A DNA stretch of 64,000 nucleotides from a virus. Lineage: Duplodnaviria; Caudoviricetes. Positions 23,828-50,029 of this stretch are shown in pieces; positions within the stretch are counted from its first letter, which is position 1, and every line of letters begins with the position of its first letter. Below the pieces are notes generated by a model that saw only the letters and a program-made list of their open reading frames with translations, searched no databases and was not told the origin of the DNA. Location of the stretch: positions 1,024-65,023 of IMG/VR virus record IMGVR_UViG_3300044712_000179; one strand, written 5' to 3'. The position numbers were made by a program, and so were the translations under genes.

Positions 23828-24085
23828 ATGGAAGAAAGTTTTTCATTCGGATCCGCTATTGAGTTCCTTAAGAACGGATTTAAAGTATCTAGATTAGGAT
23901 GGAATGGAGTTGGTATATTTATTAAACTCCAACAGCCAGACCAAAACAGTCATATGACTAGTCCTTATATCTATATAGATACTACAGAATTAGTTACTAC
24001 AAATCCTAATGCACCTAAATCAAGGGTTCCTTGGTTAGCATCTCAAACAGATATGTTAGCTAATGACTGGATTACAGTAGATTAA
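23828..24085 (+). CDS. DUF2829 / Tad2-like anti-defence sponge protein
   Basis: FGSAIEFLKNG.KV.R.GWNG..PWLASQTDMLANDW. Confidence 0.82.
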   Translation: MEESFSFGSAIEFLKNGFKVSRLGWNGVGIFIKLQQPDQNSHMTSPYIYIDTTELVTTNPNAPKSRVPWLASQTDMLANDWITVD

Positions 24086-24133
24086 GAACTTCCCTATAAT
24101 CTCAGTATTATAGGTCTGCTCCTAATAGGAGTC

Positions 24134-24206
24134 GTCTAGGTAGTTTAAGTAGCTAAAACAGCAGCCCTCTAATCTGCAATCGGATGTGCAAGTCATCCCC
24201 TAGACT
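24134..24206 (+). tRNA. Atypical tRNA; anticodon TCT (Arg) or, in shifted register, CTA
   Basis: Acceptor GTCTAGG/CCTAGAC, D-stem GTTT/AAAC, anticodon arm GCAGC-CCTCTAA-TCTGC, T-arm GGATG-TGCAAGT-CATCC; no encoded CCA. Confidence 0.75.
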
Positions 24207-24411
24207 CTAATTAGCATAGATATAAGATAACAAGAATGGGTCATCTGGCTTAGCCATTATCCCATCATCATTGGAGATGTATAGATTTAAATCTAGTTCA
24301 TCCAAGAATTCTTTGCTATTTTTATTAGTGCACAGGTATATAATGAAATTACAATCATTGTCTGCGTGTGGTTGAAGTAATAGTATCATAATATTATAAT
24401 AACAGCGTTAT

Positions 24412-24576
24412 ATGAAGGTAATAACAATAAGTGAATTGAGGGAAGACGAAAAGAAGATAGAGGCTTTAAAAAAGAAGAAAGCTGTTATAGAACACCAATT
24501 GAAAGTGGTGGAAGATGAAATTAGGAGTATTATATATAAATACGACTCAGGAAAGATAGATTATACTACTCGGTAG
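24412..24576 (+). CDS. 54-aa coiled-coil protein (not in ORF track)
   Basis: MKVITISELREDEKK...; last + strand ORF at the convergence point. Confidence 0.55.
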   Translation: MKVITISELREDEKKIEALKKKKAVIEHQLKVVEDEIRSIIYKYDSGKIDYTTR

Positions 24577-24778
24577 TAGAGCTAGAACTGCTCTGTTTTT
24601 TATACTCCTTTAATCTCAAAGCTATACCAATCGACAAATATGCGATAGATAACAAAGAGATTACGATGGTAAGAGACATACTAATATTGGACAAATTGAA
24701 CATTTTCATTACGTTTAACATTATAGCAGCCATTGTACTTGGCACACCAACAGAATCTGAGATTTTAAAATGTTCCAT
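24566..24778 (-). CDS. Holin-like membrane protein
   Basis: Hydrophobic helices, basic C-terminus, near endolysin. Confidence 0.55.
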   Translation of the reverse strand: MEHFKISDSVGVPSTMAAIMLNVMKMFNLSNISMSLTIVISLLSIAYLSIGIALRLKEYKKQSSSSSTTE

Positions 24779-24812
24779 TCATTATATTAATTATAGTGCA
24801 AATATATAAATT

Positions 24813-25763
24813 TTAATCTATTTCTGACACTACTGGCATACCCATTCGATACCTAACGCCATTGTAAAGACTACCTTTTGAGCAGTTGTCACTTTCGTAT
24901 AATGGCTGTAAATTGTCTAGTGAAAATGCTTTTATCAACCATTCGGGATCCTCTTTATCGAATGAAGCCAATGGCCTTATATGGTCAATATGCCATCCCC
25001 CTCTACCGTAATTATCCCAAGTCATACCTTCTGAAAACTTACTTTCAAGATGATTAACTAAGTCAAAATTTGAATAACCAAGCATTGAAAATGTCCTACC
25101 CGTTTTATACTTAGCGTAAGATGAAATCATACTTCGCATCCTCATAGCCATTTTTATTGATGGTACTTTTATAGCTTTTTTATAATATTTTTTATCAGAT
25201 TTTGCCTTTATTAATTTATATTTTTCAGTTTTTCTGCTAGCTATAATTTTTTCTTTATTTCTTTCCCTGTATTCTTTATCTAATTTAGATTTTAATTCCT
25301 TATTTTCCAAAGTCCATTTTCGAAGATATTCTTTTCTTGAAGGCTCCTTTTTTCTACATAATTTACATATACTACGTTTCCCATATTTACCTTTTTTACT
25401 ATTTCCGAATTTGCTAAATGGTAATCTTTGATTACAAGCAGAACAGCATTTACACCCGTCATCAATATAGTTTAACATATTATTGTTTTTAATAATATCT
25501 GAAACTACGCCAAAGTAAGTATTGAGATTTCTTGCTATTTTCTTTTTTGAAAATCCTTGTTCATATAATTCTTTAATAGGATTAATTAAATGATCTTTTG
25601 GTATTTTTTTTCTAATATAAATATTCTCATTTAATTCATTATCTTCCAATATTTCTCTAATACGCCCTACTGAAGTATTTAATTTGCTTGCTATTTTTGT
25701 TGAAGACAATCCAATAGAATGTAAAGAAATAACATCATTGTTATTTATAATAGCTTTTCTCAT
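24813..25763 (-). CDS. HNH endonuclease with HTH repeats and Zn finger
   Basis: Two HTH-like units, CSAC..CKLC, GMTWDNYG..WHIDHIRP..NLQPL..N.SK; AT-rich; start likely 25763. Confidence 0.85.
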   Translation of the reverse strand: MRKAIINNNDVISLHSIGLSSTKIASKLNTSVGRIREILEDNELNENIYIRKKIPKDHLINPIKELYEQGFSKKKIARNLNTYFGVVSDIIKNNNMLNYIDDGCKCCSACNQRLPFSKFGNSKKGKYGKRSICKLCRKKEPSRKEYLRKWTLENKELKSKLDKEYRERNKEKIIASRKTEKYKLIKAKSDKKYYKKAIKVPSIKMAMRMRSMISSYAKYKTGRTFSMLGYSNFDLVNHLESKFSEGMTWDNYGRGGWHIDHIRPLASFDKEDPEWLIKAFSLDNLQPLYESDNCSKGSLYNGVRYRMGMPVVSEID

Positions 25764-25767
25764 ATTA

Positions 25768-26049
25768 TTAGAGCTTTGTACTGCCGCCTCCTTGGCCATT
25801 CCTCTGTCTATTCTTTTTCCTATCCTCTAAAACCATTCTTCCGTCTTTAGTATGGCTCATATCCTTCTTATCCCCATTACCATAAGTTCCCGCCTTACGA
25901 TTCGCCTTATTTAATTCAGCCCTATACTTCTTCTGTTTTTCAGAGGATGCATACTTCTTATCATAAGCTCTTTTACGAGCTATAGAAGATGGACTCCAGT
26001 TTAATTTTAGATAGCTAGGGTGTTTACCCGCCATAGAATTCTTAGCCAT
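25768..26049 (-). CDS. Small basic protein with degenerate HNH-like motif
   Basis: DMSH.K....NR.RN. Confidence 0.6.
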   Translation of the reverse strand: MAKNSMAGKHPSYLKLNWSPSSIARKRAYDKKYASSEKQKKYRAELNKANRKAGTYGNGDKKDMSHTKDGRMVLEDRKKNRQRNGQGGGSTKL

Positions 26050-35857: not shown

Positions 35858-38800
35858 CTATTCCTCTTCTATTGCCCTGATTGCCATCTCGTATTCTGGG
35901 CTATTCTCTTTTACAGTTTCTCTAAGCTTTTTACCGAATAAAGAAAGACCGCTATCGTTCAATAATCCATATTCCATACCCCATTTCAAAGTGTTGTAAA
36001 ACTTCTCTTCTCCCATAGCCTTCTTCATCTCCATCATCTTAAACACTCTTGATTCTTGGCTCTTTAGAGAGAATAGTCTTCCGAACTTCATCTTATCTTC
36101 ATCTCCGCTTGTAATGGCTGTAACATTGGCTGCTGTAGCGTCGTCTAAAATCTTAGCCAAAGGGTTCTTGCCACTTTCTGTTTCAGCTTCGTCAGCTGCT
36201 GCCATAGCCTTCATAAATGCCTCACCACCCTTCTTATACAGCGATATAAGGTATTTAGCTCTTGATTCTGGGTCTTTATATCCAGCAGCCTTAGCAATAC
36301 CTACCTTTACATCAACAGGAGCTTCTGAGGTAGGAAGAGCCTTAATGGCATCATATGCCTCTTTTTGCTGTTTATTCATAGCCTTGCCTTCGATAGCCTT
36401 CATTGTAGCGTTTGGAAGATTGTCAGCAGGAAGAATGCCTAACTGAGAAGCTACATTGATAGCCGCCATCGCAGCCGCTAATCCTCTATCTTCATCAGCT
36501 ATCTTTTGAACATAATCTTTACCGAAATAAGACTTCACTACATCTCCGCTAATTCCCTCATTAATCATTGTGCCAGCTTGAGAAGCCTTCTTCATTGCGA
36601 TACCCGCAAATCCTAAGTTATCAAACTCATCCTTATTATCTCCTTGATATAAATTAAATCTTAAATCAGAAGGAGTTCCTTTATACACTGTATTGTTTAA
36701 AACAGCATTAATACCTCTATCTACAATCTTATCAGTAAATGGCAATGGAGATAAGATGTCGTTAAACATATTTGTAGTCATTGACTTGATGGCTCTGTTG
36801 TACAAATCTTCCTTCTCCTTCTCTCCTAAAACTACTCCAGCTAATGCGTTAGCGGCTGTTGTGTAGGCAATCATTTGAGCAGACTTTACGGCAGAGAAAA
36901 CAGCCATCTCCGCAGCAAGTGCATATAGAGACCTTCTAGCCTTCTGTCTGTCCTGTAGCGTATTTGTCTTAGAGCCAGCGTTCTTAATATCCGATAACAT
37001 TCTAGCCTTTTGGTTAATATTGAAGCTACCGAATGGCATTAAGGTATTTCTAATGAATGTTTTAGTATTATCCCTAGATGCCATAAACTCTCCAGCCAAT
37101 GCTCTATCGGTTACGTTCTGTTGAACATCCACCATATTTTGAGCATAGTCTGCTGCAAAGTCATTTATCTTATGATTCTTCCAATCTATTCCATTAGGGT
37201 CAATTCCTTGTTCTTTTAAAGATTGTCTATAATAAGCCATAAATGATATGATAGCAGCGTTCTTATCGAAGTTTCCTAACATCTTTTGTAACCACCATTT
37301 GTTTATATCTACAATCTTACCGCCTAGCTTAGATAGAGGGCCAGAAGCTGTCTTATCTAATATCTTATTAGTAGATTCAATAAATCCTTCTGCTTCTATA
37401 CCTCTATTAGCGATAGCTCTTCCAGAGTTCTTTATAAAATTAATTACATCAGGGTCTCTAAAGTCTCCAATCTTAACATTGCTTGCACCAGCGTTCACTA
37501 ATGTATTCGTAAGTGTTGGAATAGTTTGTTTTACAGGAGCCCATAAACTAGCCAAAGACCTTGAGGCAACAAGTGTATTCAATCCATTAAATGTCCTTCT
37601 TAGTTCTGTATAACTAGAAGGGTCTACTGCATCAAAACCTCTTGCTCTAACAATATAATTCTTCATCTTATCCAAAGCTAAATTAGCTTGGTCTTGAGAG
37701 TTGAATATCTTATTATAGTTCTTAGACTTTACAAATGATCTTAACTTCTTAATATCTCTAGCGGTATAGATGTCTGTTAAAGCTCTATCCATCGCCTTTG
37801 ATGTATTGTAGTCAAAATTAAAGTCAATATATCTTCCAGCAGGAACATCTGATAATGGAGTTGTCTTCATTAATACACCACTTTTCTTAGAAGGTATATT
37901 ATCTGCATACGAAGCAAAAGCACCTGTTTCTAATGGGTCTTGCTCTGCATTAGCTTCTCTCTTAAGCGTTCTAAATATAACTGGGTTATATCGATTATCG
38001 TTGCCTAAGTCTTGATTGTATATATTTAAAGACACATCTTTTAATTCAGGATAATACTCTGCCCACTTATTTGTCCACCAATCAACAGCCTCTATATTAG
38101 TCTTATCCATTTTAGCCTCTACATCTTGTATAGTATTTGCATCTGCTAATATCTTATCATATATTTCTTGATATACTTCAGCTACGGCAGCATCATCACC
38201 TCCGCTTTCTCTCATTGCATTGATGGAACTTTGAGCTAACTCTTTCTTCTTTAAGAATTCTGCTTGATTTTGTTTCTCATCTAATCCTAAATTTCTTCTT
38301 ACATATGCATAAATACCTCTCTCAAATACATTATTTTGACTAGAGAAATCTTCTCCGTTTGGCTTCTTCTTTTCAAATGTTTTTACAAAATTATCAATCA
38401 TTGTATTGATGGTGGTAACAGCTTTTGCTCTACCATTCTCTACACCTTTGAATCCAGACTTTTCTAAGAACTCCGTTGATTTAGTATCTCCAAATATAGT
38501 ATTGAAGTATACAGGAATAGAACTAAAGTTTTCTAAGAATGCATTAATTCCCTTTGTCCCAAGTTCTTTTGCGAATTTGGTAAACCCTTTCTTCTTTATA
38601 GCCTTGCTATTTGCAACAGCGTCAGAAGGAGCTTTAGGATACTTCTTAGCAAATGCCTCTGAATTAACATCGCCTTCGTGTCCTGCTAAAACAGCATCTA
38701 AGCCAGATGTCTGTCCATTAGTAGTAAAATTGGATAATGCTTCTATTGCTCTATATGCATCATCTAATTTCATTGAAGTAATATCTATCTTCAATAATTC

Positions 38801-41683
38801 CTCTATTCTAGCTTTGTCTTTAGGAGATACATCAAATGTAACACTTGAAAATCCGTCTGTTCCATTTGCTAAAATACTTTTAGCTATAGCAGATAATGAA
38901 CCAAATCTCTTATCTATATAAGCCTTTATATATCTTGATTTATCTTTAATGTCTTGTGTTTCAGCGCCTGATTCTATAGCTGCAATCATCTCCTCCATTT
39001 GGTCAAATGACATATCTGGAGTTATCACTCCGCTATCCACCAAGTCTTGATATTCTGCCATCTTGGCGTTCTTAGCAGCTGTTTCTTGGTCTGCTATTTC
39101 CTCTCTAATATATTTACCAACAGTCTCTGTATTAAACGGCTGATTGAATGAAACCTCAGTTCCTACTCTTCTGCTTGGTTTAATTCCATTGATAATTGTA
39201 TTAGCTACCTTGGCGTATCTAGGTAAATCTTTTACTTTAGATGGGTCTATTGATAAGAATGCTTTTGCAGCAGCAGATAGGTTTTGTTGACCTACCTTAG
39301 ACTTGGCATACTTTTTAATCAACCCTTTAAATCTATTAGCATCAGATAACTGCTTATCGTAATTAGCATCGTTAATTACATTAGAAACATATTCAACAAA
39401 TTTATCTACGCTTTCGTTATTAGATAGATTAACAGCATCATACTTCTTTAAGATACTCTGTAATTGAGCTGTCTTAATAGTGCCTCTTCTAGCTAATTCA
39501 GAAAGACCCTTAGATATTGTCTGTCTTGTATCCTTGATCCAAGTAGCTGTTTCTCTAGAAGCCTGTTCTTGTCTTTTAAGTAGTCTTTTAAGTGCTGTAG
39601 ATTCGTCAACGGTAATTTTCTTTTTTACATTACCTAAGATTCTATCTACCGAAGGAGCAGACTTCTGCTTAGTTCCAAATAGTTCAGTATCTAAATCTCT
39701 CAACATTTGCTCTCTAGTAACATCATTCGCTAATTCAAAAGCCTTAGACTTTTTGAAATTTTGAATAACATTATCTCTAACAGCGTCTTGCTTTCTACCT
39801 CTTTTAACGGATTCTTCTTGAACCTTCTTAGCTGTATTCCAAGCGGTCTTTCCGTCTTCTGTATTAAAAGATTCTGGAATTACTTCTTGTTGCGTCTCGC
39901 TGCTGATAGGGCGATTGCTATTATCTGCTTCATTGGTCGCTTGTTTTTGCTCGCCTTCAGTTCCCTGATATTGGCTGATATTGCTTGTTGTTGGGCCTTC
40001 TTGCTTTTGCCCTTCGCTGATTGTAGTGGCATTTTCTTCTGGTTTTATTTGTGATGTTGTTGTAGTTGCTTGTTCAGTAGGAGTTATTGTAACACCTTCT
40101 TCATCTACTTCTCCAGCCAATGGCTCAGGATTAGTATTAGCTTCGTTTATTCTCTTATCTAAATTTGAAATCTGTTGTGCTATCTCTGCTTGATTTGACT
40201 CATCCGCTTTTTTCAAAGCATCGCTTAATTGTCTCTTCTGCATAATTAATCCATAGATAGTAGGCTGTTTCTCTTCAGGAACATTTGGATTATCTTGTCT
40301 AATCTTATTCCACTCATCTATCTTTTTCATCTCATCCTTCACTTGCTGTTCAGTCATAAGACCTTCAGCTTGCTTATTCTTGAGTTCAGATTCAACGAAG
40401 TTTCTATCTAATGTAGATAGGTAATTTGTAGCTTGAGATTTATACCATTTATCTATCTTTCTTGAAGCAGCACCTCCAGCGCCAGCTATCGTAGCAATAG
40501 CACCGCCTGCAATTAACTCTCCTTTTGCATTATCTAACGCTCTATCAAGAACATTTAAATCCTGCCCTGTAGTGGTCTCTGTGGCTAAGTCTCTAATAGA
40601 ACTAGCAAGACCAGCAACAGATGCATCTAATGCTAAACTAACAGCTGGTTCTTTTGCTTTTTGCAAATAAGCCTTAGTGGCATTTACAAATCCTTCTCCA
40701 GCTTTCTTCGTAGCAGCGGAGAATGCCTTTCCGATTTGAGCGTCAGCAAGTGTGCTAATAACCCCTTCTAATGCACCACTAGATAAATAGGTAAATCTAT
40801 TAGCCTTAGATACATCGTAGGCATCTTGCTCAGAAAGACCTTGGTCTCTAGCAATATTATACGCTTCTTCTTCTGATTGATTTCCCTGAGATAGTGCATT
40901 GATAGCAGCTTGTAATCCAGAGTTGGCGGCTGATATCTTAATAGCATCAAGACCAACTTTCGCTAATTTAGCTCCAACTCCAGCAGCGCCAATAGGTGCA
41001 AATGTAGTAGCTAATTGAGCGGCTGTTTGACCAGCCATTTCTCCATATTCTCTAGCCTTACTAGCTTCTTCATCTATAACCATTTGGTTATATCTTCTTT
41101 TGGATTCTCTTTCTCTTATTTTATCTTCTTCTGAAACAAATGGGTTGTAATACTTTACAGACTCTTCTATACCATTGAAATATCCATTCCACCCATCAGC
41201 GATAGCACCTAAAACAGATGGTGCACTTCTGATAATTTCTTTATTTCCTTGCTCGTCTTCTGTAATTTTAAAGTCTCCTGTTTGAACACCTTTAGCTAAG
41301 TTTGTTCTATATACATCTTCTGGCATAACACCAGTTCTGAACTTCTTTGCAACAGTATTTTCTATGGCTGTTTTAAGCTCTTTATTAGCCTCTACATTTT
41401 GATTAATGATAGGCTCTAATACATCTTGGGATATAATAGGCTTAGCCTGTACAGGCATAGGCGCAGGAGTAGCTGTCTTTTGCTCTGATTTTACCTTAGT
41501 TGGCTTCTCTTGTTTCTTGTATGGAGAAAACGCAGTACTCTCAGGACTTTGTTCTAGGATTTTTTTAAGCAATCCAGCTTTCGGTCTTTGGTAGTCAACT
41601 GATGTATTTAAACCCTCGTATGAAAGGTTATTAGGTGTATCTTTTTGAGTTAAATCTATCTTGTCAAATGTTCCTTTAGCCAT
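35858..41683 (-). CDS. Large internal virion/ejection protein (1941 aa)
   Basis: Size, Ala/Gly-rich helical segments, position after tail genes. Confidence 0.6.
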   Translation of the reverse strand: MAKGTFDKIDLTQKDTPNNLSYEGLNTSVDYQRPKAGLLKKILEQSPESTAFSPYKKQEKPTKVKSEQKTATPAPMPVQAKPIISQDVLEPIINQNVEANKELKTAIENTVAKKFRTGVMPEDVYRTNLAKGVQTGDFKITEDEQGNKEIIRSAPSVLGAIADGWNGYFNGIEESVKYYNPFVSEEDKIRERESKRRYNQMVIDEEASKAREYGEMAGQTAAQLATTFAPIGAAGVGAKLAKVGLDAIKISAANSGLQAAINALSQGNQSEEEAYNIARDQGLSEQDAYDVSKANRFTYLSSGALEGVISTLADAQIGKAFSAATKKAGEGFVNATKAYLQKAKEPAVSLALDASVAGLASSIRDLATETTTGQDLNVLDRALDNAKGELIAGGAIATIAGAGGAASRKIDKWYKSQATNYLSTLDRNFVESELKNKQAEGLMTEQQVKDEMKKIDEWNKIRQDNPNVPEEKQPTIYGLIMQKRQLSDALKKADESNQAEIAQQISNLDKRINEANTNPEPLAGEVDEEGVTITPTEQATTTTSQIKPEENATTISEGQKQEGPTTSNISQYQGTEGEQKQATNEADNSNRPISSETQQEVIPESFNTEDGKTAWNTAKKVQEESVKRGRKQDAVRDNVIQNFKKSKAFELANDVTREQMLRDLDTELFGTKQKSAPSVDRILGNVKKKITVDESTALKRLLKRQEQASRETATWIKDTRQTISKGLSELARRGTIKTAQLQSILKKYDAVNLSNNESVDKFVEYVSNVINDANYDKQLSDANRFKGLIKKYAKSKVGQQNLSAAAKAFLSIDPSKVKDLPRYAKVANTIINGIKPSRRVGTEVSFNQPFNTETVGKYIREEIADQETAAKNAKMAEYQDLVDSGVITPDMSFDQMEEMIAAIESGAETQDIKDKSRYIKAYIDKRFGSLSAIAKSILANGTDGFSSVTFDVSPKDKARIEELLKIDITSMKLDDAYRAIEALSNFTTNGQTSGLDAVLAGHEGDVNSEAFAKKYPKAPSDAVANSKAIKKKGFTKFAKELGTKGINAFLENFSSIPVYFNTIFGDTKSTEFLEKSGFKGVENGRAKAVTTINTMIDNFVKTFEKKKPNGEDFSSQNNVFERGIYAYVRRNLGLDEKQNQAEFLKKKELAQSSINAMRESGGDDAAVAEVYQEIYDKILADANTIQDVEAKMDKTNIEAVDWWTNKWAEYYPELKDVSLNIYNQDLGNDNRYNPVIFRTLKREANAEQDPLETGAFASYADNIPSKKSGVLMKTTPLSDVPAGRYIDFNFDYNTSKAMDRALTDIYTARDIKKLRSFVKSKNYNKIFNSQDQANLALDKMKNYIVRARGFDAVDPSSYTELRRTFNGLNTLVASRSLASLWAPVKQTIPTLTNTLVNAGASNVKIGDFRDPDVINFIKNSGRAIANRGIEAEGFIESTNKILDKTASGPLSKLGGKIVDINKWWLQKMLGNFDKNAAIISFMAYYRQSLKEQGIDPNGIDWKNHKINDFAADYAQNMVDVQQNVTDRALAGEFMASRDNTKTFIRNTLMPFGSFNINQKARMLSDIKNAGSKTNTLQDRQKARRSLYALAAEMAVFSAVKSAQMIAYTTAANALAGVVLGEKEKEDLYNRAIKSMTTNMFNDILSPLPFTDKIVDRGINAVLNNTVYKGTPSDLRFNLYQGDNKDEFDNLGFAGIAMKKASQAGTMINEGISGDVVKSYFGKDYVQKIADEDRGLAAAMAAINVASQLGILPADNLPNATMKAIEGKAMNKQQKEAYDAIKALPTSEAPVDVKVGIAKAAGYKDPESRAKYLISLYKKGGEAFMKAMAAADEAETESGKNPLAKILDDATAANVTAITSGDEDKMKFGRLFSLKSQESRVFKMMEMKKAMGEEKFYNTLKWGMEYGLLNDSGLSLFGKKLRETVKENSPEYEMAIRAIEEE

Positions 41684-43716: not shown

Positions 43717-46700
43717 CTATCTATTATTATAAGGTTGTAAAATTCCAAGTTCCATATAGTACAAATCTACTAAGTTTTGCGGATTTACTGGCGTAAATTT
43801 AATTTCTATCCAGCTACCCTTCAATACATTGCCATTATACAGCCCACCTGCACTATTGATATCTCTCTTAAATGCAGCGTGATATTTGTCATCTTTGATT
43901 CTAAAATCAGATGCAACTAACTGAGATTGCTGATTCATATTAGTATTGATATCACCAGCTGTAGGAGCAATCCAAGTGGTGTTCCCTAAAGTAGTTAATG
44001 TATTGTAATGCTTTTTGATGTTTTGAGAATCGTTGAATACCACCTTTAAGCTAGGTGTCTTCTGTTCTCCATAGAAATTAGCATAAGCTGAAGTATTGTT
44101 ATGAACCCATAATTCTCCGTCTTTCCAACTGATAATTAAGTTACCAGCCGTCTCTATCCATTCTGGGTAGTAGTCGTAGAAGGCGCTATATGCATTTCTA
44201 GCCTCAGAGAATCCGAATGTATAGTCTGGTAATTCAGATCCACTTCCTTGCATACAAGTAATGAACTCTTCTTCAAATGCATCATATACTCCAAGTATCT
44301 TAGCGTATCCACCATCTCCAAATTTATCAGCATAAGTAGTTTTTTGATACTTAGATATCTTATCTGTGAAGAAGAAGTGTGTTTTGTATGTTTCTGTCAA
44401 AGATGTCATACCTCCATCAGACAATCTAATCTGACATCCTAATACAGGGTCTGTAAAGTAGTCTGCTCTAGCAGATGATGCTAATGAGCAGTATTGACCA
44501 CCTATTCCATAATCTCCCTTGTAGTATTGAATTTTATTCAATATCTCTGTACTTTGAGCAACAACAGTATTTCCATCTGCTGTTTGTAGCATATTTTGTA
44601 AGATAGGAGCCATACCACAAGCCCTACTTTGGAATACTCTTAATTCTCTACCTCTTGTCTTTAATCTTTGAATATCTCCTCTTTCTCTATCATAATCATC
44701 CAAGTTTCCAGAAAGGAATTTATTGGTATTATTGATACTTGTATTTTGTTGATACTCTAAAGAATATCTAACAGTACTTGGGTAATATGTTTCTTTAGCG
44801 TAATCATCTATTACCAATGCTCTTCCAGTATTAGATATCTTAGATGCATACTTATCTGAAACAGATTTATCAAATATGTACAATCCTCCTCTATTTCTAG
44901 AATAAACATCCCCTCTACTGAATATGAACATAGCTGGTGTAGGCATTGTTACGCCAAGTTGATTGTCAGCTGTATTATCCGTATAAGTGGTAGTAGTATT
45001 ATCATTGATTGTAGCCAATAATTTATACTGAGAACTATTTGCTGTTGTTCTATATATTTTTCTTTGTGTAGTTCCAGTAGGGCCTATAGCAATATTACTT
45101 AAGGCAATCTTAGTAGAACCTGTAACAGTAGTTATCGTATTAGATTCATTACTAGGAGTAGATACTCCGCTAGGTGTAACGAACTCTACTCTGTACTTAT
45201 ACTTACCTAAATTAATATTACCGGCTTCCACTAATAGTGTAGCTGTTAAAGCAGAAGGAACAAGTATACTAGAGTTTGTTCCAGATACCTGAGATAAAAG
45301 TTGACCTTGGTGAACCCTCTGACCATTAATATCCGTAATAATTTTATATGTCTCTCCAAATTCATAGAATACTTGTAAGTTAGGGTCTGTAGAGCCAACT
45401 GCAGGAGTGTATACCTCTATGAAATACTCATTAGCTACAACAGCTCCAGCTGATTCCCATCCAGACATAAATGTTGAATCATATGCTAATTTTAAATAAG
45501 AACCAGTAGTATTTAATAATGTAGGAAGCATATCTAAGATAGCGTAATCCTTCACTGTTACTATAGCGCTGTTTCTTAATCCGTATATTCTAACTCTATC
45601 CCCTTTACTAAAAGTGTATATTGGATATCCAGCTGTATTAGTATTATAAGGAGTAATATTTAAATATCCGTAATTCGTATCCTTGTAAGTATTCAAGGTA
45701 GTCATCATCTTAAACTCTCCTACTGTAGTATTATTCGTTCTTACGAAAGAATAGTATTTTGCCCAAGTTGGAGGAGTATGATTTATTTTAATTGTAACCT
45801 CTGGTACGCTTAATGGCTTATTACCAACATTAGTACACTGAGCCTCTGGCATCAATATTTTTAAACCTTCATTTGTTATAACGCCATTTGTTACACCATA
45901 TTCATCAAAATAAGCAATACCAAACTGATACTTAGAGCTATGCTTGTAAACAGCACTATTAATTTCTGTTGGGATGGTTGATGAAGCGTATACAATTTGG
46001 TACACTCCTGTAACTACATCTGTGCCAACAGTGCTTCCAAATGTAACTCCGGGATTTCCACCAGAAGTAATATCAATAGCTGTATATCCATCAGCAATAG
46101 CTTGAGCTTGTAAGTCATCTATAATAGATGCTAAAGTATCTCCAGTGATTACTGTATGGTCGTAATATCTATAAGTTACAGGGCCAGAATCTGGTGTAAT
46201 TGTTAAAACAACTTTAACATAATCTCCTACTACTGGTGTTCCGTAGAATACATATGAATATTTTCTTCCAGAAGCAAAAGCAGAGATGGTCATAGGAATT
46301 TCATTTCCTGCACCACCTGCAACTACAGATGCAACTGAAGCTATAATATCTGTTGTGCTTACAGGAGTATTACCCTCTGTAATACCGCCATAAACAATTA
46401 CATTACCATTCAATAATTCTTGTGCATTTGCTTTCTTAGGAACATAGTCAAATAATTGAACAGAATCTGTACTATCCGCTAAAGGATATGCACCATCATT
46501 CAAGAATCTAAATGTATAGGTTGATTCATTCGCAATGCCTAATGTAGACTTTGTAAGAGTAGTTACGATAGCTCTATCAGAAAATACACTAGAAACGGCT
46601 TCTCTTACTGATATCTCTATTTTTACTGCATCAGCTGGACCTGTCTCTATAATAGAGTCTATAGCGTTGTTCTTAGTTGGATCTGATTCTATGGCTAAAT

Positions 46701-47232
46701 CATCTGTACTATAAGGCGCAGACATCTTACCCCAAGGACTCCAACAAGACTTTGTATTATCATTATATACCCATCTATAACTAAATTGAAACAGCTTATT
46801 TTTTAAGTTGTTTACATTGATAGGGGTTCCGTTAGGAGCGATAGCATTTTGATAAGTAGAGATAGGTGCAACCAAAGGCATCTTTCTAGCAACAGTCAAA
46901 TATTCTTTCTTCCAAGCTGTTCCGTACAGCTTATCTAAAGCATCCTTGATATTCAATTTCATAGGTCTATTCAACCTATCTGTCCAATGTAAAATATCCC
47001 CATCAGCCTCTGTTCTATATAATATATTCACAGACGCAATAGGATATTTGGGGTCAAACCCAAATAGGTCTTCCGCGCTGTCTACAAAAGATATCAATAA
47101 CGGAGTAATTGTATTTAATTTAACATCATATACATATATACCGCTATATCCAGCAGAGTTGTAGTTAAAGAAGAATACCCTATGCTTTAATTCATCATAA
47201 TGAGAACCTATACATTGATTGGTAGAAGCCAT
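43717..47232 (-). CDS. Tail stabilisation/muzzle-like protein lacking its usual N-terminal module
   Basis: CIG..DE..R.FF, L.WTD..N.P.K.N, YGIG..SLAS, SAFYDYYPE, W.HN, NFYG, LKG.W; inserted FN3-like domain. Confidence 0.75.
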   Translation of the reverse strand: MASTNQCIGSHYDELKHRVFFFNYNSAGYSGIYVYDVKLNTITPLLISFVDSAEDLFGFDPKYPIASVNILYRTEADGDILHWTDRLNRPMKLNIKDALDKLYGTAWKKEYLTVARKMPLVAPISTYQNAIAPNGTPINVNNLKNKLFQFSYRWVYNDNTKSCWSPWGKMSAPYSTDDLAIESDPTKNNAIDSIIETGPADAVKIEISVREAVSSVFSDRAIVTTLTKSTLGIANESTYTFRFLNDGAYPLADSTDSVQLFDYVPKKANAQELLNGNVIVYGGITEGNTPVSTTDIIASVASVVAGGAGNEIPMTISAFASGRKYSYVFYGTPVVGDYVKVVLTITPDSGPVTYRYYDHTVITGDTLASIIDDLQAQAIADGYTAIDITSGGNPGVTFGSTVGTDVVTGVYQIVYASSTIPTEINSAVYKHSSKYQFGIAYFDEYGVTNGVITNEGLKILMPEAQCTNVGNKPLSVPEVTIKINHTPPTWAKYYSFVRTNNTTVGEFKMMTTLNTYKDTNYGYLNITPYNTNTAGYPIYTFSKGDRVRIYGLRNSAIVTVKDYAILDMLPTLLNTTGSYLKLAYDSTFMSGWESAGAVVANEYFIEVYTPAVGSTDPNLQVFYEFGETYKIITDINGQRVHQGQLLSQVSGTNSSILVPSALTATLLVEAGNINLGKYKYRVEFVTPSGVSTPSNESNTITTVTGSTKIALSNIAIGPTGTTQRKIYRTTANSSQYKLLATINDNTTTTYTDNTADNQLGVTMPTPAMFIFSRGDVYSRNRGGLYIFDKSVSDKYASKISNTGRALVIDDYAKETYYPSTVRYSLEYQQNTSINNTNKFLSGNLDDYDRERGDIQRLKTRGRELRVFQSRACGMAPILQNMLQTADGNTVVAQSTEILNKIQYYKGDYGIGGQYCSLASSARADYFTDPVLGCQIRLSDGGMTSLTETYKTHFFFTDKISKYQKTTYADKFGDGGYAKILGVYDAFEEEFITCMQGSGSELPDYTFGFSEARNAYSAFYDYYPEWIETAGNLIISWKDGELWVHNNTSAYANFYGEQKTPSLKVVFNDSQNIKKHYNTLTTLGNTTWIAPTAGDINTNMNQQSQLVASDFRIKDDKYHAAFKRDINSAGGLYNGNVLKGSWIEIKFTPVNPQNLVDLYYMELGILQPYNNR

Positions 47233-47246
47233 TTATTAAGTTTTAA

Positions 47247-47486
47247 TTAGCTTTTGAAACGCATTGTTACAGACGATACGCAAGTTCCAGTTGATTGTAC
47301 TTTAATTTGAAAAGCACTATCTGGAACATCAGAATACCTAACAGCTACTCCCTGAGTGAAAGATTGACCTGTTTTAGGCCATCCGCTAGCAGAGATATCT
47401 GCTCCAGCATTATCCACAGGTGTAACAATAAAGTTAGCTGTATCTGCGCCTTTTGTCGAAAGTGTAACATCTACAATTTGAGCCAT
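47247..47486 (-). CDS. Small beta-rich virion-associated protein
   Basis: VPD..IKVQSTGTC; preceded by TATCTTTG box at 47508-47515. Confidence 0.6.
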   Translation of the reverse strand: MAQIVDVTLSTKGADTANFIVTPVDNAGADISASGWPKTGQSFTQGVAVRYSDVPDSAFQIKVQSTGTCVSSVTMRFKS

Positions 47487-47534
47487 AATTAATCTATTTT
47501 AAGTCGTTCAAAGATACGATTTTATGCTTGTTGA

Positions 47535-49064
47535 TTATACGCACTCGCAACCTGAATCTGGATACCAATTGTAAATCTGAGTTCCACTAGGAGAAGATGT
47601 AGTACCTGTAACAGTTAAACAAGTTCCAGTATCAGAAGAATATCCTTTTCCACCACCAGTTCCTGTTCCTGCCATATAGTAAATAGCTCCTGTACAGTTG
47701 TCATAGAATTGAGTAAATTCTGGACATCCAGTTTGACCTGTACTAGTCAATGCGTAAGAGCCAGCGTTTCCAGTTGATGTTACTGCTGTGATAACGAATG
47801 TAGCGCCACTTGCTGTAACTCTTTGTCCTACAGAGAATGAACCCTTAGTGTACACTATAGAGAATCCTGTTCCACCACTCATACAATCACTCAATACATA
47901 TACTTCAGAACAAGTGTTTGAATTATATTCTATAGGATAATCTCTTACGCCATTGTAATTTACAGCGCAAGGGTTGATTTGAATTTGAGGCTGATACAAT
48001 GTCGTTCCAGAACAATAGTTAGCGCCATTTGGCTGCCAGTTCTGTGTTGTATCAGGAGCTGTATTACTAGGGTTGGAAGAATAAGTAGTTCCACCTCCAA
48101 CAGAAGTGTACCACTGATTTCCACCGAAGCAAGGGTTAGAGTTTCTAAGAACAGCATATGTATTTACAGTTCCATTAGAACATACATACAATGTGCCATC
48201 GTTAATGCTGTACACAGCAGCTGTTGATTGACCGCAACATCCTCCACAATCGGTAGAATTAGATTGAGCCAACCCACCTTGTCTTGTCGCTAAATATTGA
48301 GAAGCACAAGGATTAGTCTGTTGTTCTACATAATATTTATCACATCCAGAACATTGATACTGACCGAATAGTACAGTCCAAGTTTGGTTGTAATTACAAG
48401 CAGAGCCTCCATTAATCCATCTCAGGTTATTGTAGCTAGGAGAACAAGGATTAATATCTCTTTGTTCTATTTGGCTTACACAGTTATTACATCTTGTAGC
48501 ACCAGTATTTTGCCAGTTTTCTGTATAGTTACAGCTTCCCGGAGTTGGAGATACATATCCATAATAAGTGTATCCTTCTGTTGGAGAACCTGCTCTAAAC
48601 TTCTGATACTCAGGAGAGAATGGATTTGTATCCATTTGAACTTGGAATGTATTACAAGGAGATACACAAGTGGTATATCCTTGATTTACCCAGTTAGGAG
48701 TATTATTTCCAATTAGTGAAGCTCCACCAGCTAAAGAGCATAATCTAAGAACAGATGTTCCAGCTAATGTACATTGAGGAATATAAGCGGCTGTTCCTGC
48801 TAATCCACAGGCTGCATACAAGAATGAAGTTCCCGCTAAATTACAGTTTGGTATATATGTTGCAGAACCCTCTAATCTACAGTTACTAACTACAAGAGAG
48901 CTGTTTGATATCTTTTGATTACCTCTGATTGCAGTAAAATGCATCTCAGGGCTATTGCCCTTAAATACGCCATTTCTAGCCTCTTTATGGTGCGAATTAG
49001 GAAATACATCGTTAGAGTCATCCAGATTCATTATACCCTGCAATGTCTTTCTTTCTGCTCCCAT
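47535..49064 (-). CDS. Muzzle-type N-terminal module fused to Cys-rich repeat protein
   Basis: GIMNLDD..P..H.EARN..I.GN, five C.L.G repeats, then W..G..C..NPC repeats. Confidence 0.75.
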   Translation of the reverse strand: MGAERKTLQGIMNLDDSNDVFPNSHHKEARNGVFKGNSPEMHFTAIRGNQKISNSSLVVSNCRLEGSATYIPNCNLAGTSFLYAACGLAGTAAYIPQCTLAGTSVLRLCSLAGGASLIGNNTPNWVNQGYTTCVSPCNTFQVQMDTNPFSPEYQKFRAGSPTEGYTYYGYVSPTPGSCNYTENWQNTGATRCNNCVSQIEQRDINPCSPSYNNLRWINGGSACNYNQTWTVLFGQYQCSGCDKYYVEQQTNPCASQYLATRQGGLAQSNSTDCGGCCGQSTAAVYSINDGTLYVCSNGTVNTYAVLRNSNPCFGGNQWYTSVGGGTTYSSNPSNTAPDTTQNWQPNGANYCSGTTLYQPQIQINPCAVNYNGVRDYPIEYNSNTCSEVYVLSDCMSGGTGFSIVYTKGSFSVGQRVTASGATFVITAVTSTGNAGSYALTSTGQTGCPEFTQFYDNCTGAIYYMAGTGTGGGKGYSSDTGTCLTVTGTTSSPSGTQIYNWYPDSGCECV

Positions 49065-49065
49065 A

Positions 49066-49257
49066 TTATGGTCTATCTATGGTTTTTAAATTGCTGTTAG
49101 TTATTTTAGTGTTGCCTTTGATTGACTGAAACTTAATAAGGCTTCCATTGCCTCTAAATACCCCATTTCTAGCTTCTCTGTGATGAGTACTAGGGAAAGT
49201 GTCTTTAGGGTCATCAAGGTTCATAATGCCGCTTATAGTCTTTCTTTCAGTCTTCAT
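49066..49257 (-). CDS. Stand-alone muzzle-type N-terminal module (63 aa)
   Basis: Paralogous to first ~57 aa of 47535..49064; abuts both neighbours with 1-nt gaps. Confidence 0.75.
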   Translation of the reverse strand: MKTERKTISGIMNLDDPKDTFPSTHHREARNGVFRGNGSLIKFQSIKGNTKITNSNLKTIDRP

Positions 49258-49258
49258 T

Positions 49259-50029
49259 TTATGATTTAGCCACTAATTTCTGACCCATTCTGATAATCTC
49301 ATTAGCATCCCATAACATAATAGGATTCTCTCTAAGATTAGCCAATCTCTTTTGGTTATAATATTCTTTTCTACGCATCTGTTTGTCTCCAAGACTAGCT
49401 CTTCTTCCAAGAGGCAAATGCTCTATATCTTTCCAAGCTATCCAAGCTAAAACAGCTTCCTTAATTTGTACGGGGATTTTGTAGTCTACATCATCAGCAG
49501 GAGATGACATATATTCTAATACAACATAGTCATATGAGTAATCATTCTGTAAATACAATAATCCATCTTCTTCTGAAATATCAAATTCGCCCGGACTATT
49601 TAAAACAGCACCAGCTCCAAATATATTTACATATCTAGCTCCATCAAAGTAGTTTACAAAAGCTAAGTCCTGTAATCTATAAGTGCTTCCAGTTGTATTA
49701 TCTGTATTGCTAGATGTTCTGTCTGATTGCAATATCTTGTATGAACTAAGTGCGACATTTCTTCTAAGTGTAGCAACTTCTCCTTTTTCATTAAATACGC
49801 CAGCCTTAGAAAATGCAACATAGTCTAGTGGTAATGATACTGTCTTGTTTGCGTTAACAGGTAATTTGACAGTCTTCTTGGTGTTATAAACATCCATACC
49901 TAACTCTTCTACACCTCTTACGCCAATAGTCCAAAGTCTTCTATATTCAGCATTAGACAGCTTTGCTTGGTCTATATACTGATAGATAACTTCTGATAAA
50001 CCTATATATTTGCTTGTATCCTTACTCAT
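49259..50029 (-). CDS. Tail ring/tubular protein (putative)
   Basis: LP.DYV, VVLEY, P..KEA..A.I.W pattern; position. Confidence 0.6.
   Translation of the reverse strand: MSKDTSKYIGLSEVIYQYIDQAKLSNAEYRRLWTIGVRGVEELGMDVYNTKKTVKLPVNANKTVSLPLDYVAFSKAGVFNEKGEVATLRRNVALSSYKILQSDRTSSNTDNTTGSTYRLQDLAFVNYFDGARYVNIFGAGAVLNSPGEFDISEEDGLLYLQNDYSYDYVVLEYMSSPADDVDYKIPVQIKEAVLAWIAWKDIEHLPLGRRASLGDKQMRRKEYYNQKRLANLRENPIMLWDANEIIRMGQKLVAKS

Follow-up and report, generated by a model that had tools for sequence, protein, structure and literature searches.

In phicrAss001, the tail muzzle protein gp44 (7QOK/7QOL; PF25731 crAss_MUZ and PF25729) is a single polypeptide, which in the available part of its published description consists of a ring-joining domain, a seven-bladed propeller like that of the T7 nozzle, two immunoglobulin-like (Ig-like) domains and a 'crass' domain (PMC10172136). 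In Pseudomonas podophage A1002, platform and propeller parts at the C-terminus of gp39, the nozzle-rope protein, complete the truncated nozzle-base protein gp42, and gp39 also bears a fibre-dock rope holding receptor-binding parts, according to the accessible portion of that report (PMC13730344, PLoS Biol 2026). We analysed a stretch of 64,000 nucleotides (nt), here called the window, which covers the 65,023-bp virus record IMGVR_UViG_3300044712_000179, a record with direct terminal repeats, except for its initial 1,023 bases; the phage comes from a freshwater setting, in which its lineage can be called widespread. The window carries a muzzle/nozzle gene in two parts: the body, of 1171 amino acids (aa), lacks the N-terminal module, and this module is encoded upstream, once as a bare open reading frame (ORF) of 63 aa (N63) and once at the start of a cysteine-rich protein of 509 aa (P509). 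By computation we established that the gene is split and the split conserved, that its pieces are under purifying selection and that the module is homologous to the N-termini of unsplit muzzles. We consider it likely that the module, bare or cargo-bearing alike, complements the body in trans, rebuilding the ring-joining or platform part together with the first and last blades of the body.

The body and gp44 belong to one fold family (relatives of the body also match PF25731), and both proteins have the order of an N-terminal ring-joining part followed by a beta-propeller, as far as gp44 is described in the text available (PMC10172136). However, gp44 is one chain, whereas the window phage encodes the ring-joining N-module apart and twice; sequence identity in the fold alignment is ~11%, and the window genome is not a crassvirus proper. 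The A1002 proteins were compared with those of the window by their published description (PMC13730344). The A1002 nozzle fold is shared by two polypeptides through beta-strand complementation of platform and propeller, and a second polypeptide would likewise complete the fold in the window phage, as judged by sequence and prediction only; gp39 also has a long appendage, and P509, its presumed counterpart, carries 450 aa of Cys-rich beta cargo. The gp39 domains are, however, C-terminal and fill a truncated platform and two incomplete blades, whereas in the window phage it is the N-terminal module that is detached, in full, with nothing of it left in the body. The complementing protein of A1002 is a single one, in contrast to the paralogous bare and cargo modules found here (with 0 to 2 bare copies in relatives), and the cargo of the window phage appears to be fibre-like itself (PMC13730344). 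In the literature searched (supplements not covered), no split muzzle was described and the A1002 split nozzle was the only precedent; the first-pass annotation, which a model had made from the letters of the window, had called the arrangement what would be a plug-in display system that it did not recognise as described; the A1002 nozzle now gives the idea a precedent.

The nearest named relatives of the body are the single-ORF 'virion structural proteins' of Cellulophaga phi38:1/Calle and of the Flavobacterium elemo phages (25 to 28% identity over N- and C-terminal parts, 52 to 53% query coverage). In these the N-module pattern recurs and the gene likewise stands behind two to three small virion genes, but phi38:1 gp097 (1324 aa) and elemoF gp22 (1493 aa) are each encoded by one ORF, and the stretches viewed contained no separate module gene. 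Judging by the hosts of these relatives and by the labels of the sequencing runs that contain the sequence, freshwater Bacteroidota are candidate hosts of the window phage. The naming of the gene in the first-pass annotation as a crAss-like muzzle stands as to homology, but the genome is only distantly related to crAss-like phages, its nearest named relatives being phi38:1/Calle/elemo, outside Crassvirales proper.

A muzzle body without its N-terminal module

The body matched PF25729 crAss_MUZ_C over residues 1049 to 1124 (36 bits; cut-off, 27), which places it in this family, and its match to phrog_14478 began only at profile position 59. Residue 1 of the body aligned to position 58 to 61 of unsplit proteins, leaving no N-module in its own chain, and in the unsplit phi38:1 gp097 and elemoF gp22 the ORF started ~59 to 63 codons before the point aligned to this residue. 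No sequence in the PDB matched the body (phmmer, E ≤ 1). In place of the whole body of the window, we folded as a proxy the unsplit homologue P0084 (1154 aa), which is 54% identical both to the body and to the body's cluster representative P0006 (P0006 and the body being 99% identical). The AlphaFold2 (AF2) model of P0084, made from a 104-row alignment, had a predicted local distance difference test (pLDDT) score of 88.3 and a predicted template modelling (pTM) score of 0.75. Its overall fold was that of a beta-propeller with inserted Ig-like and distal domains, and its best match among solved folds was the phicrAss001 muzzle 7qok_A (E = 3e-37; template modelling score on the query [TMq], 0.55), and the podophage nozzles of SU10, A4, P-SCSP1u, GP4 and P22 came next. 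The body, the tail-tip protein of this podophage, is homologous to the crAss001 muzzle and the T7-type nozzle. Residues 1 to 57 of the P0084 model formed five beta strands (pLDDT, 89 to 95) and the next strand began at residue 62; the break point lies in the loop, where unsplit proteins read '...GNRLITNSLPSGNNQCIG' and N63 reads '...GNTKITNSNLKTIDRP' followed by a stop, the body beginning with 'MASTNQCIG...'.

Over their first ~57 residues, N63 and P509 gave gapless alignments with the N-terminal ends of unsplit relatives, in which 14 columns were invariant among 16 rows. N63 corresponds to residues 1 to 57 of an unsplit muzzle plus a 6-residue tail of its own (KTIDRP), and bare modules keep their own conserved tail, NLKT.DRP. 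N63 and the P509 module shared 60% protein identity and 65% nucleotide identity, with synonymous divergence (dS) saturated. The first-pass annotation had held that the missing N-terminal segment is encoded twice upstream, bare and fused to ~450 aa of Cys-rich repeats, and had named the alignment of the 63-aa ORF to unsplit N-termini as a check; the alignment bore out both copies and the fusion. The three ORFs that it had drawn were found at the same positions and on the same strand (Table 1), as was an in-frame TAA directly ahead of the body ATG, which is in fact a double TAA TAA.

A search with a profile of the module against 1.84 billion representative sequences returned 117 proteins (E ≤ 1e-3), and in all 117 the module started within the first 10 residues. 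The sequence ran on into a muzzle body in 86 of them; 16 consisted of the module and Cys-rich cargo without a body (158 to 1134 aa), 2 were bare (63 and 64 aa), 3 (P0201, P0226 and P0203) came from another lineage and carried Ig-like cargo, and 10 were short and unclear. The bare module exists as a cluster representative at 50% identity (P0127). When longer proteins with the N63 module were sought by a word-based search, only three were found, all of the 210-aa module-cargo type. N63 had no family in PHROGs or Pfam, and tblastn of N63 against 50,697 phage records gave no match. In the more distant lineage of P0201, P0226 and P0203, the muzzle N-module is fused to Ig-like repeats in place of Cys-rich cargo. 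No locus for P0226 was recovered from viral contigs; its C-terminus (CLVPETKI...ILTHN) looked Hint/intein-like by eye, and Pfam returned no such domain at E ≤ 0.1.

For complex prediction we used body residues 1 to 260, body residues 758 to 1171 and N63 as the partner, each with a custom alignment. The interface score (interaction prediction score from aligned errors [ipSAE]) was 0.82, 0.83 and 0.83 in three runs, against 0.01 for the best of three controls, and passed the mark of the tool, as do 58 of 80 solved complexes and 2 of 110 mismatched pairs. Contact agreement between runs was at least 88% and partner pLDDT at least 80. The ~230 predicted contacts joined nearly all of N63 residues 1 to 60 to body residues 3 to 47, 949 to 955, 987 to 1070 and 1140 to 1166; N63 is thus predicted to bind the N- and C-terminal blades of the body, and docking of the 63-aa ORF into the body, another check named in the first-pass annotation, came out as predicted binding. 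In an AF2 model of P509 alone, residues 1 to 118 (the module and the CxLxG repeats) had pLDDT below 50 and residues 119 to 509 had pLDDT of 85 to 96. In these models the module appears to fold only on the body and seemingly cannot do so alone.

Conservation of the split and arrangements in relatives

The body had 372 homologues at E ≤ 1e-10, and start sites were sorted for the best 120 (118 by script; P0068 and P0125 by eye). Among these 120, 68 bodies started at M[AP]STNQCIG-like residues and the other 52 were unsplit with the module; the split body is present in at least 68 clusters at 90% identity. In a large tree, split bodies (23 of 104 rows) lay on one side of one branch with a Shimodaira-Hasegawa (SH)-like support of 100, equivalent to one change, and in a small tree rooted on five unsplit rows they (8 of 17 rows) grouped together with an SH approximate likelihood ratio test (SH-aLRT) value of 99. 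Judged from these trees, the split bodies are one clade.

We surveyed relatives in IMG/VR twice. In the first survey 16 loci were inspected, of which 9 were split and 7 unsplit (L003, L010, L011, L013, L016, L017 and L018; two partial); the second covered 62 loci, 9 of them contigs of the first, and found 10 split and 52 unsplit. Separate module ORFs, one to three per locus, were present in all 10 split loci, and a second module ORF was found in none of the 52 unsplit loci (within ±6.5 kb), in 38 of which the module profile detected the muzzle's own module. The simplest split arrangement (L004) is a bare module (62 to 68 aa), a 26-nt spacer and the body. In L005, L012, L014 and L015 (class C), one module-cargo protein of 210 aa is followed by a small ORF (P79) and the body, and there is no bare module. 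The window (cargo protein of 509 aa) and L006 to L009 (846 to 1068 aa) have a bare 63-aa module, a module-cargo protein, P79 and the body, and L027:3316-6493, from the second survey, has two bare 62-aa modules, an 839-aa module-cargo protein, a 74-aa P79-like ORF and the body. Relatives thus carry 0 to 2 bare modules, the upper number because L027 has two in tandem, and 0 or 1 cargo-bearing module in a protein of 210 to 1068 aa, while the length of the bare module was constant (62 to 63 aa) in 6 loci. A survey of relatives for the same split with variable cargo had also been suggested at first pass, and both the split and the variation in cargo were seen.

For N63, the ratio of nonsynonymous to synonymous divergence (dN/dS) was 0 to 0.24 (12 of 15 pairs with defined dS), with dS at or near saturation, and for the module of the cargo proteins it was 0.07 to 0.24 (8 of 15 pairs). 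The two modules within a genome were 61 to 66% identical in DNA, and dS between them was high (saturated in three of four genomes); because of this low identity and high dS we regard the module duplication as old. Parts of the window were contained in 20 DNA sequencing runs from 12 studies and in no RNA run listed. Contigs of 4 runs from 4 studies, 90 to 99% alike, were colinear over 46900 to 49500 without joints, and the sole length change among them was a net 3-nt insertion or deletion inside P509. Presence of the split in independent DNA assemblies, again a check proposed beforehand, was seen in these contigs of 4 studies; given their colinearity and the same break in homologues, we rejected an assembly artefact. 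From its spread among homologues, the single clade of split bodies, the low dN/dS of the bare module and the colinear contigs, we take the split to be genuine and of long standing. As separate observations, small deletions at 47649-47659 (in the C-terminal domain of P509) summed to 3 nt, in frame, in 3 of the 4 runs compared, and environmental strains had many substitutions scattered across P509.

Cargo, P79 and layout of the locus

P509 contains 29 Cys (5.7%), five CxLxG repeats of 12 residues (62 to 121), five '..NPC/F..' ('...D.NPC...') beta repeats and a C-terminal domain, and its residues 122 to 509 were all-beta in the AF2 model. A CxLxG-type repeat also follows the module in other cargo proteins. 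P509 had no family in Pfam or PHROGs, and Tandem Repeats Finder returned no repeats over 47400-49300. The cargo model had 0 matches among PDB folds and 3 in BFVD, all uncharacterised viral proteins (E ≤ 0.001 in both), and the ESM Atlas gave no usable feature match and structural rows at template modelling (TM) scores of 0.22 to 0.34 only. At E ≤ 1e-5 the cargo had 45 homologues, of which 15 carried the muzzle module and 30 had other N-termini (at least five types) or were fragments; ten cargo homologues with other anchors had no family in PHROGs.

Tail fibres and tailspikes combine a conserved N-terminal virion anchor with exchangeable distal domains. The Cys-rich cargo resembles these in standing behind at least five different N-termini and, once, in a tail-fibre cluster: in L088:1672-10298 (a 111-kb contig), a cargo homologue with a different N-terminal anchor directly follows two genes with tail-fibre PHROG matches (E = 2e-27 and 1e-81), one of 1223 aa and one, collagen-like, of 585 aa. 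The cargo homologues thus show one distal domain behind varied anchors in a tail module, the pattern of modular anchoring. Because of these varied anchors and the tail-fibre context in L088, we interpret the cargo as a fibre- or adhesin-like distal module mounted via the muzzle's detached N-module. In contrast to modular fibres, the anchor in the window phage is a detached piece of the nozzle/muzzle, so that fibre and tail tip would share the complementation site.

P79, a conserved ORF of 79 aa between cargo and body, was present in 10 of 10 cargo-bearing sequences (the window, L005 to L009, L012, L014, L015 and L027) and was not present in L004 or in the unsplit loci of the first survey. It had no family in PHROGs or Pfam, and phmmer of P79 against the 45 cargo homologues gave no match at E ≤ 10. 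The C-terminal half of P79 aligned to the N-terminus of the cargo homologues P0250-52 (hhalign probability 91%, E = 9e-7, 31 columns). P79 may act as a partner or chaperone, or else as a second anchor. A box, T(C/T)GTATCTTTGA, was found upstream of the P79 gene in 7 of 7 sequences inspected (the window, L005, L006, L007, L008, L012 and L027; L009, L014 and L015 lay outside this set). It contains TAnnTTTG, which we take to be the −7 promoter consensus of Bacteroidota. This short motif occurred 78 times in the window against an expected 77.4, which is no enrichment; only the conservation of the box upstream of P79 counts. The first-pass annotation had listed the three ORFs correctly but missed P79, and had described the box as a separate promoter of the body; the box is there, but it directly precedes the 79-aa ORF and would serve P79 plus the body. 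In L006:3153-4675, two extra genes separate the cargo from P79: a 308-aa ORF without a family and a 213-aa ORF weakly matching Methyltransf_25 (at E = 3e-5, short of the cut-off). Modification of the cargo or of the host surface is a possible role for the two.

The order on the minus strand is the 256-aa virion gene, N63, P509, a 48-nt gap with the box, P79 and the body (Table 1). One nt separates the 256-aa gene from N63 and one nt N63 from P509 (N63 ends in TAA and the P509 ATG comes one base later), and 14 nt separate P79 from the body. The 207-aa ORF matched PF25702 CrAss_Ring_2 over its full length at 15.9 bits (E = 0.01), under the cut-off of 27; this protein and the 256-aa protein may be tail rings joined by the module. 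Elsewhere in the window, a 1941-aa ORF at 35858-41683 (minus strand) lies downstream of the muzzle gene within the virion module, and the GC skew changes sign near 24 kb (24000-26000), coinciding with a switch of gene strand.

Table 1. Features of the split muzzle locus and its neighbours in the window
Feature	Position	Strand	Evidence or remark
Possible tail ring protein, 207 aa	50047..50670	−	PF25702 CrAss_Ring_2, E 0.01; context only
Virion structural gene, 256 aa	49259..50029	−	phrog_13977 match at 5e-19; syntenic in all related loci; context only
N63, bare N-terminal module, 63 aa	49066..49257	−	ORF; gapless alignment; dN/dS; docking model
P509, cargo-bearing module protein, 509 aa, 29 Cys	47535..49064	−	ORF; 45 homologues; AF2 model
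N-module of P509 (residues 1-57), N63 paralogue	48894..49064	−	Alignment; 60% identity to N63; pLDDT <50 modelled alone
Five 12-residue CxLxG(T/S)A repeats (P509 residues 62-121)	48702..48881	−	Probably linker or stalk
Cys-rich beta-repeat region and C-terminal domain (P509 residues 122-509)	47538..48701	−	Putative fibre-/adhesin-like cargo
Conserved box TCGTATCTTTGA	47508..47519	−	In the 48-nt gap upstream of P79
P79, small conserved ORF, 79 aa	47247..47486	−	Co-occurs with cargo
Muzzle/nozzle body without N-terminal module, 1171 aa	43717..47232	−	PF25729 and phrog_14478

Proposed trans-complementation by the module and competing explanations

Under trans-complementation, the break in the gene would fall in the loop that connects the N-terminal beta module (~57 residues; ring-joining or 'platform') with blade 1 of the beta-propeller, the body being made without the module and two paralogous genes supplying it in trans (as 63 aa, or as 509 aa with Cys-ladder linker and cargo). 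The module would pack on body residues 3 to 47 and on the C-terminal blades (~949 to 1166) and so restore the part by which the muzzle hexamer is connected to the tail ring. Either a bare module or one with cargo would be accepted by each subunit of the body; the cargo, an accessory adhesin or fibre, would sit where ring and muzzle meet, and the bare module would fill the sites without cargo. Completion of the muzzle fold in trans had been proposed at first pass, and module homology, the docking model, the split in assemblies and the variable cargo of relatives all point the same way. The accompanying proposal that the tail can be loaded with a plain plug or a plug bearing an arm fits the loci found, but loading in either way is itself an inference. 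A more speculative extension, which we hold to be possible but doubtful, is that the set of module genes acts as a genetic dial for the valency or pattern of appendages on the six-fold tail tip, with bare and cargo modules competing for, or being ordered on, the six sites. If so, cargo alone would give six arms, bare and cargo modules together fewer, perhaps three, the two bare modules and cargo of L027 fewer still, perhaps two, and the bare module of L004 none; fold complementation of an essential tail protein would then be a plug-in socket at which adhesins are swapped or dropped with the body gene untouched.

Several points weigh against trans-complementation or soften it. Incorporation into the virion, mixed occupancy and the adhesin role of the cargo are inferred and binding is predicted. 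A docking pass denotes likeness to true complexes and is not proof of binding by N63 itself; the score may reflect likeness to solved nozzle/muzzle structures, or the fact that the pieces make up a single fold between them, and the input, with custom alignments and the body supplied as two chains, differs from that on which the tool was calibrated. A shallow alignment may be the reason for the module's low pLDDT when P509 is modelled. The cargo lacks a recognisable family or solved fold, the word 'adhesin' resting on context, and the constant pairing of P79 with cargo is not accounted for. In the P0201/P0226 lineage, a module-bearing accessory protein may coexist with an unsplit muzzle.

Portable, shared N-terminal anchors are common in tail fibres. 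The ~57-residue module might accordingly be an autonomous adaptor that docks to the last tail ring or to another tail part rather than to the body, in which case the module proteins would be accessory fibres and a decoy sharing the old muzzle anchor, and the body would be attached via other surfaces. Besides the frequency of such anchors, the constant extreme N-terminal position of the module ahead of varied cargo and its occurrence on Ig-like proteins of another lineage (P0201, P0226) agree with this, as does the name 'ring-joining' given to the crAss001 domain in the part of the description available (PMC10172136). However, in the docking model nearly every residue from 1 to 60 of N63 is buried on the body, with ~230 contacts, the module is modelled as unfolded when alone, and separate module ORFs accompany the split in 10 of 10 loci and an intact muzzle in 0 of 52; we regard an autonomous adaptor as unlikely. 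Slightly less likely again is a role for N63 in exchange or as a chaperone, that is, as an assembly placeholder by which the body stays soluble, or its open sheet stays capped, until cargo modules or the ring replace it, or as a timing device by which translational coupling of N63 and P509 is set against the promoter-like box of P79 and the body. The 1-nt spacings from the 256-aa gene to N63 and from N63 to P509, the conserved box upstream of P79 and the body, and the existence of phages without a bare module (class C) or without cargo (L004) would fit such a role. In L004, however, the bare module is the only one and, provided that a module is required, would have to be the permanent partner there, and the conserved tail NLKT.DRP and strong purifying selection of the bare module are expected of a structural piece, although still compatible with a chaperone.

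The 63-aa ORF could instead be a decaying remnant of a cassette insertion beside a body that works without an N-module. Small ORFs beside insertion scars are common, and N63 belongs to no PHROGs or Pfam family, but its dN/dS of 0 to 0.24 with dS at or near saturation, its length of 62 to 63 aa in 6 loci, its retention in L004, its doubling in L027 and its own cluster representative P0127 make this very improbable, and we disfavoured a pseudogene remnant on account of the purifying selection on N63. Least probable of all, and given almost no weight here, is a covalent rejoining of the pieces at the RNA or protein level (by an intron, trans-splicing, recoding or stop read-through) into an unsplit mature protein. 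Recoded stops are known in crAss-like phages, for example in the zeta crAss-like phage Lera, where TGA is translated as Trp, as reported in the accessible part of the source (PMC12386605). In the window, however, all stops concerned are TAA; conserved ORFs under selection, not intron-like sequence, lie between N63, P509 and the body; N63 and P509 are in different frames, as are P79 and the body; the 26-nt spacer of L004 ends with TAA directly before the body ATG; and no joined form was found in DNA contigs. On these grounds a gene interrupted by an intron, an intein or recoding was rejected as well.

Podophage nozzles and crass muzzles are usually treated as single-chain gatekeepers of genome ejection; in this lineage, if the module complements the body in trans, the ring-joining piece would be a detachable socket. 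This would add an independent case, the second, to the split nozzle of A1002, would mean that complementation can be used with alternative partners, and would provide a simple natural scaffold for foreign domains on the phage tail tip. For annotation, where a truncated muzzle gene has short ORFs labelled 'hypothetical' or Cys-rich proteins upstream of it, these would then be read as tail-tip parts and not as junk.

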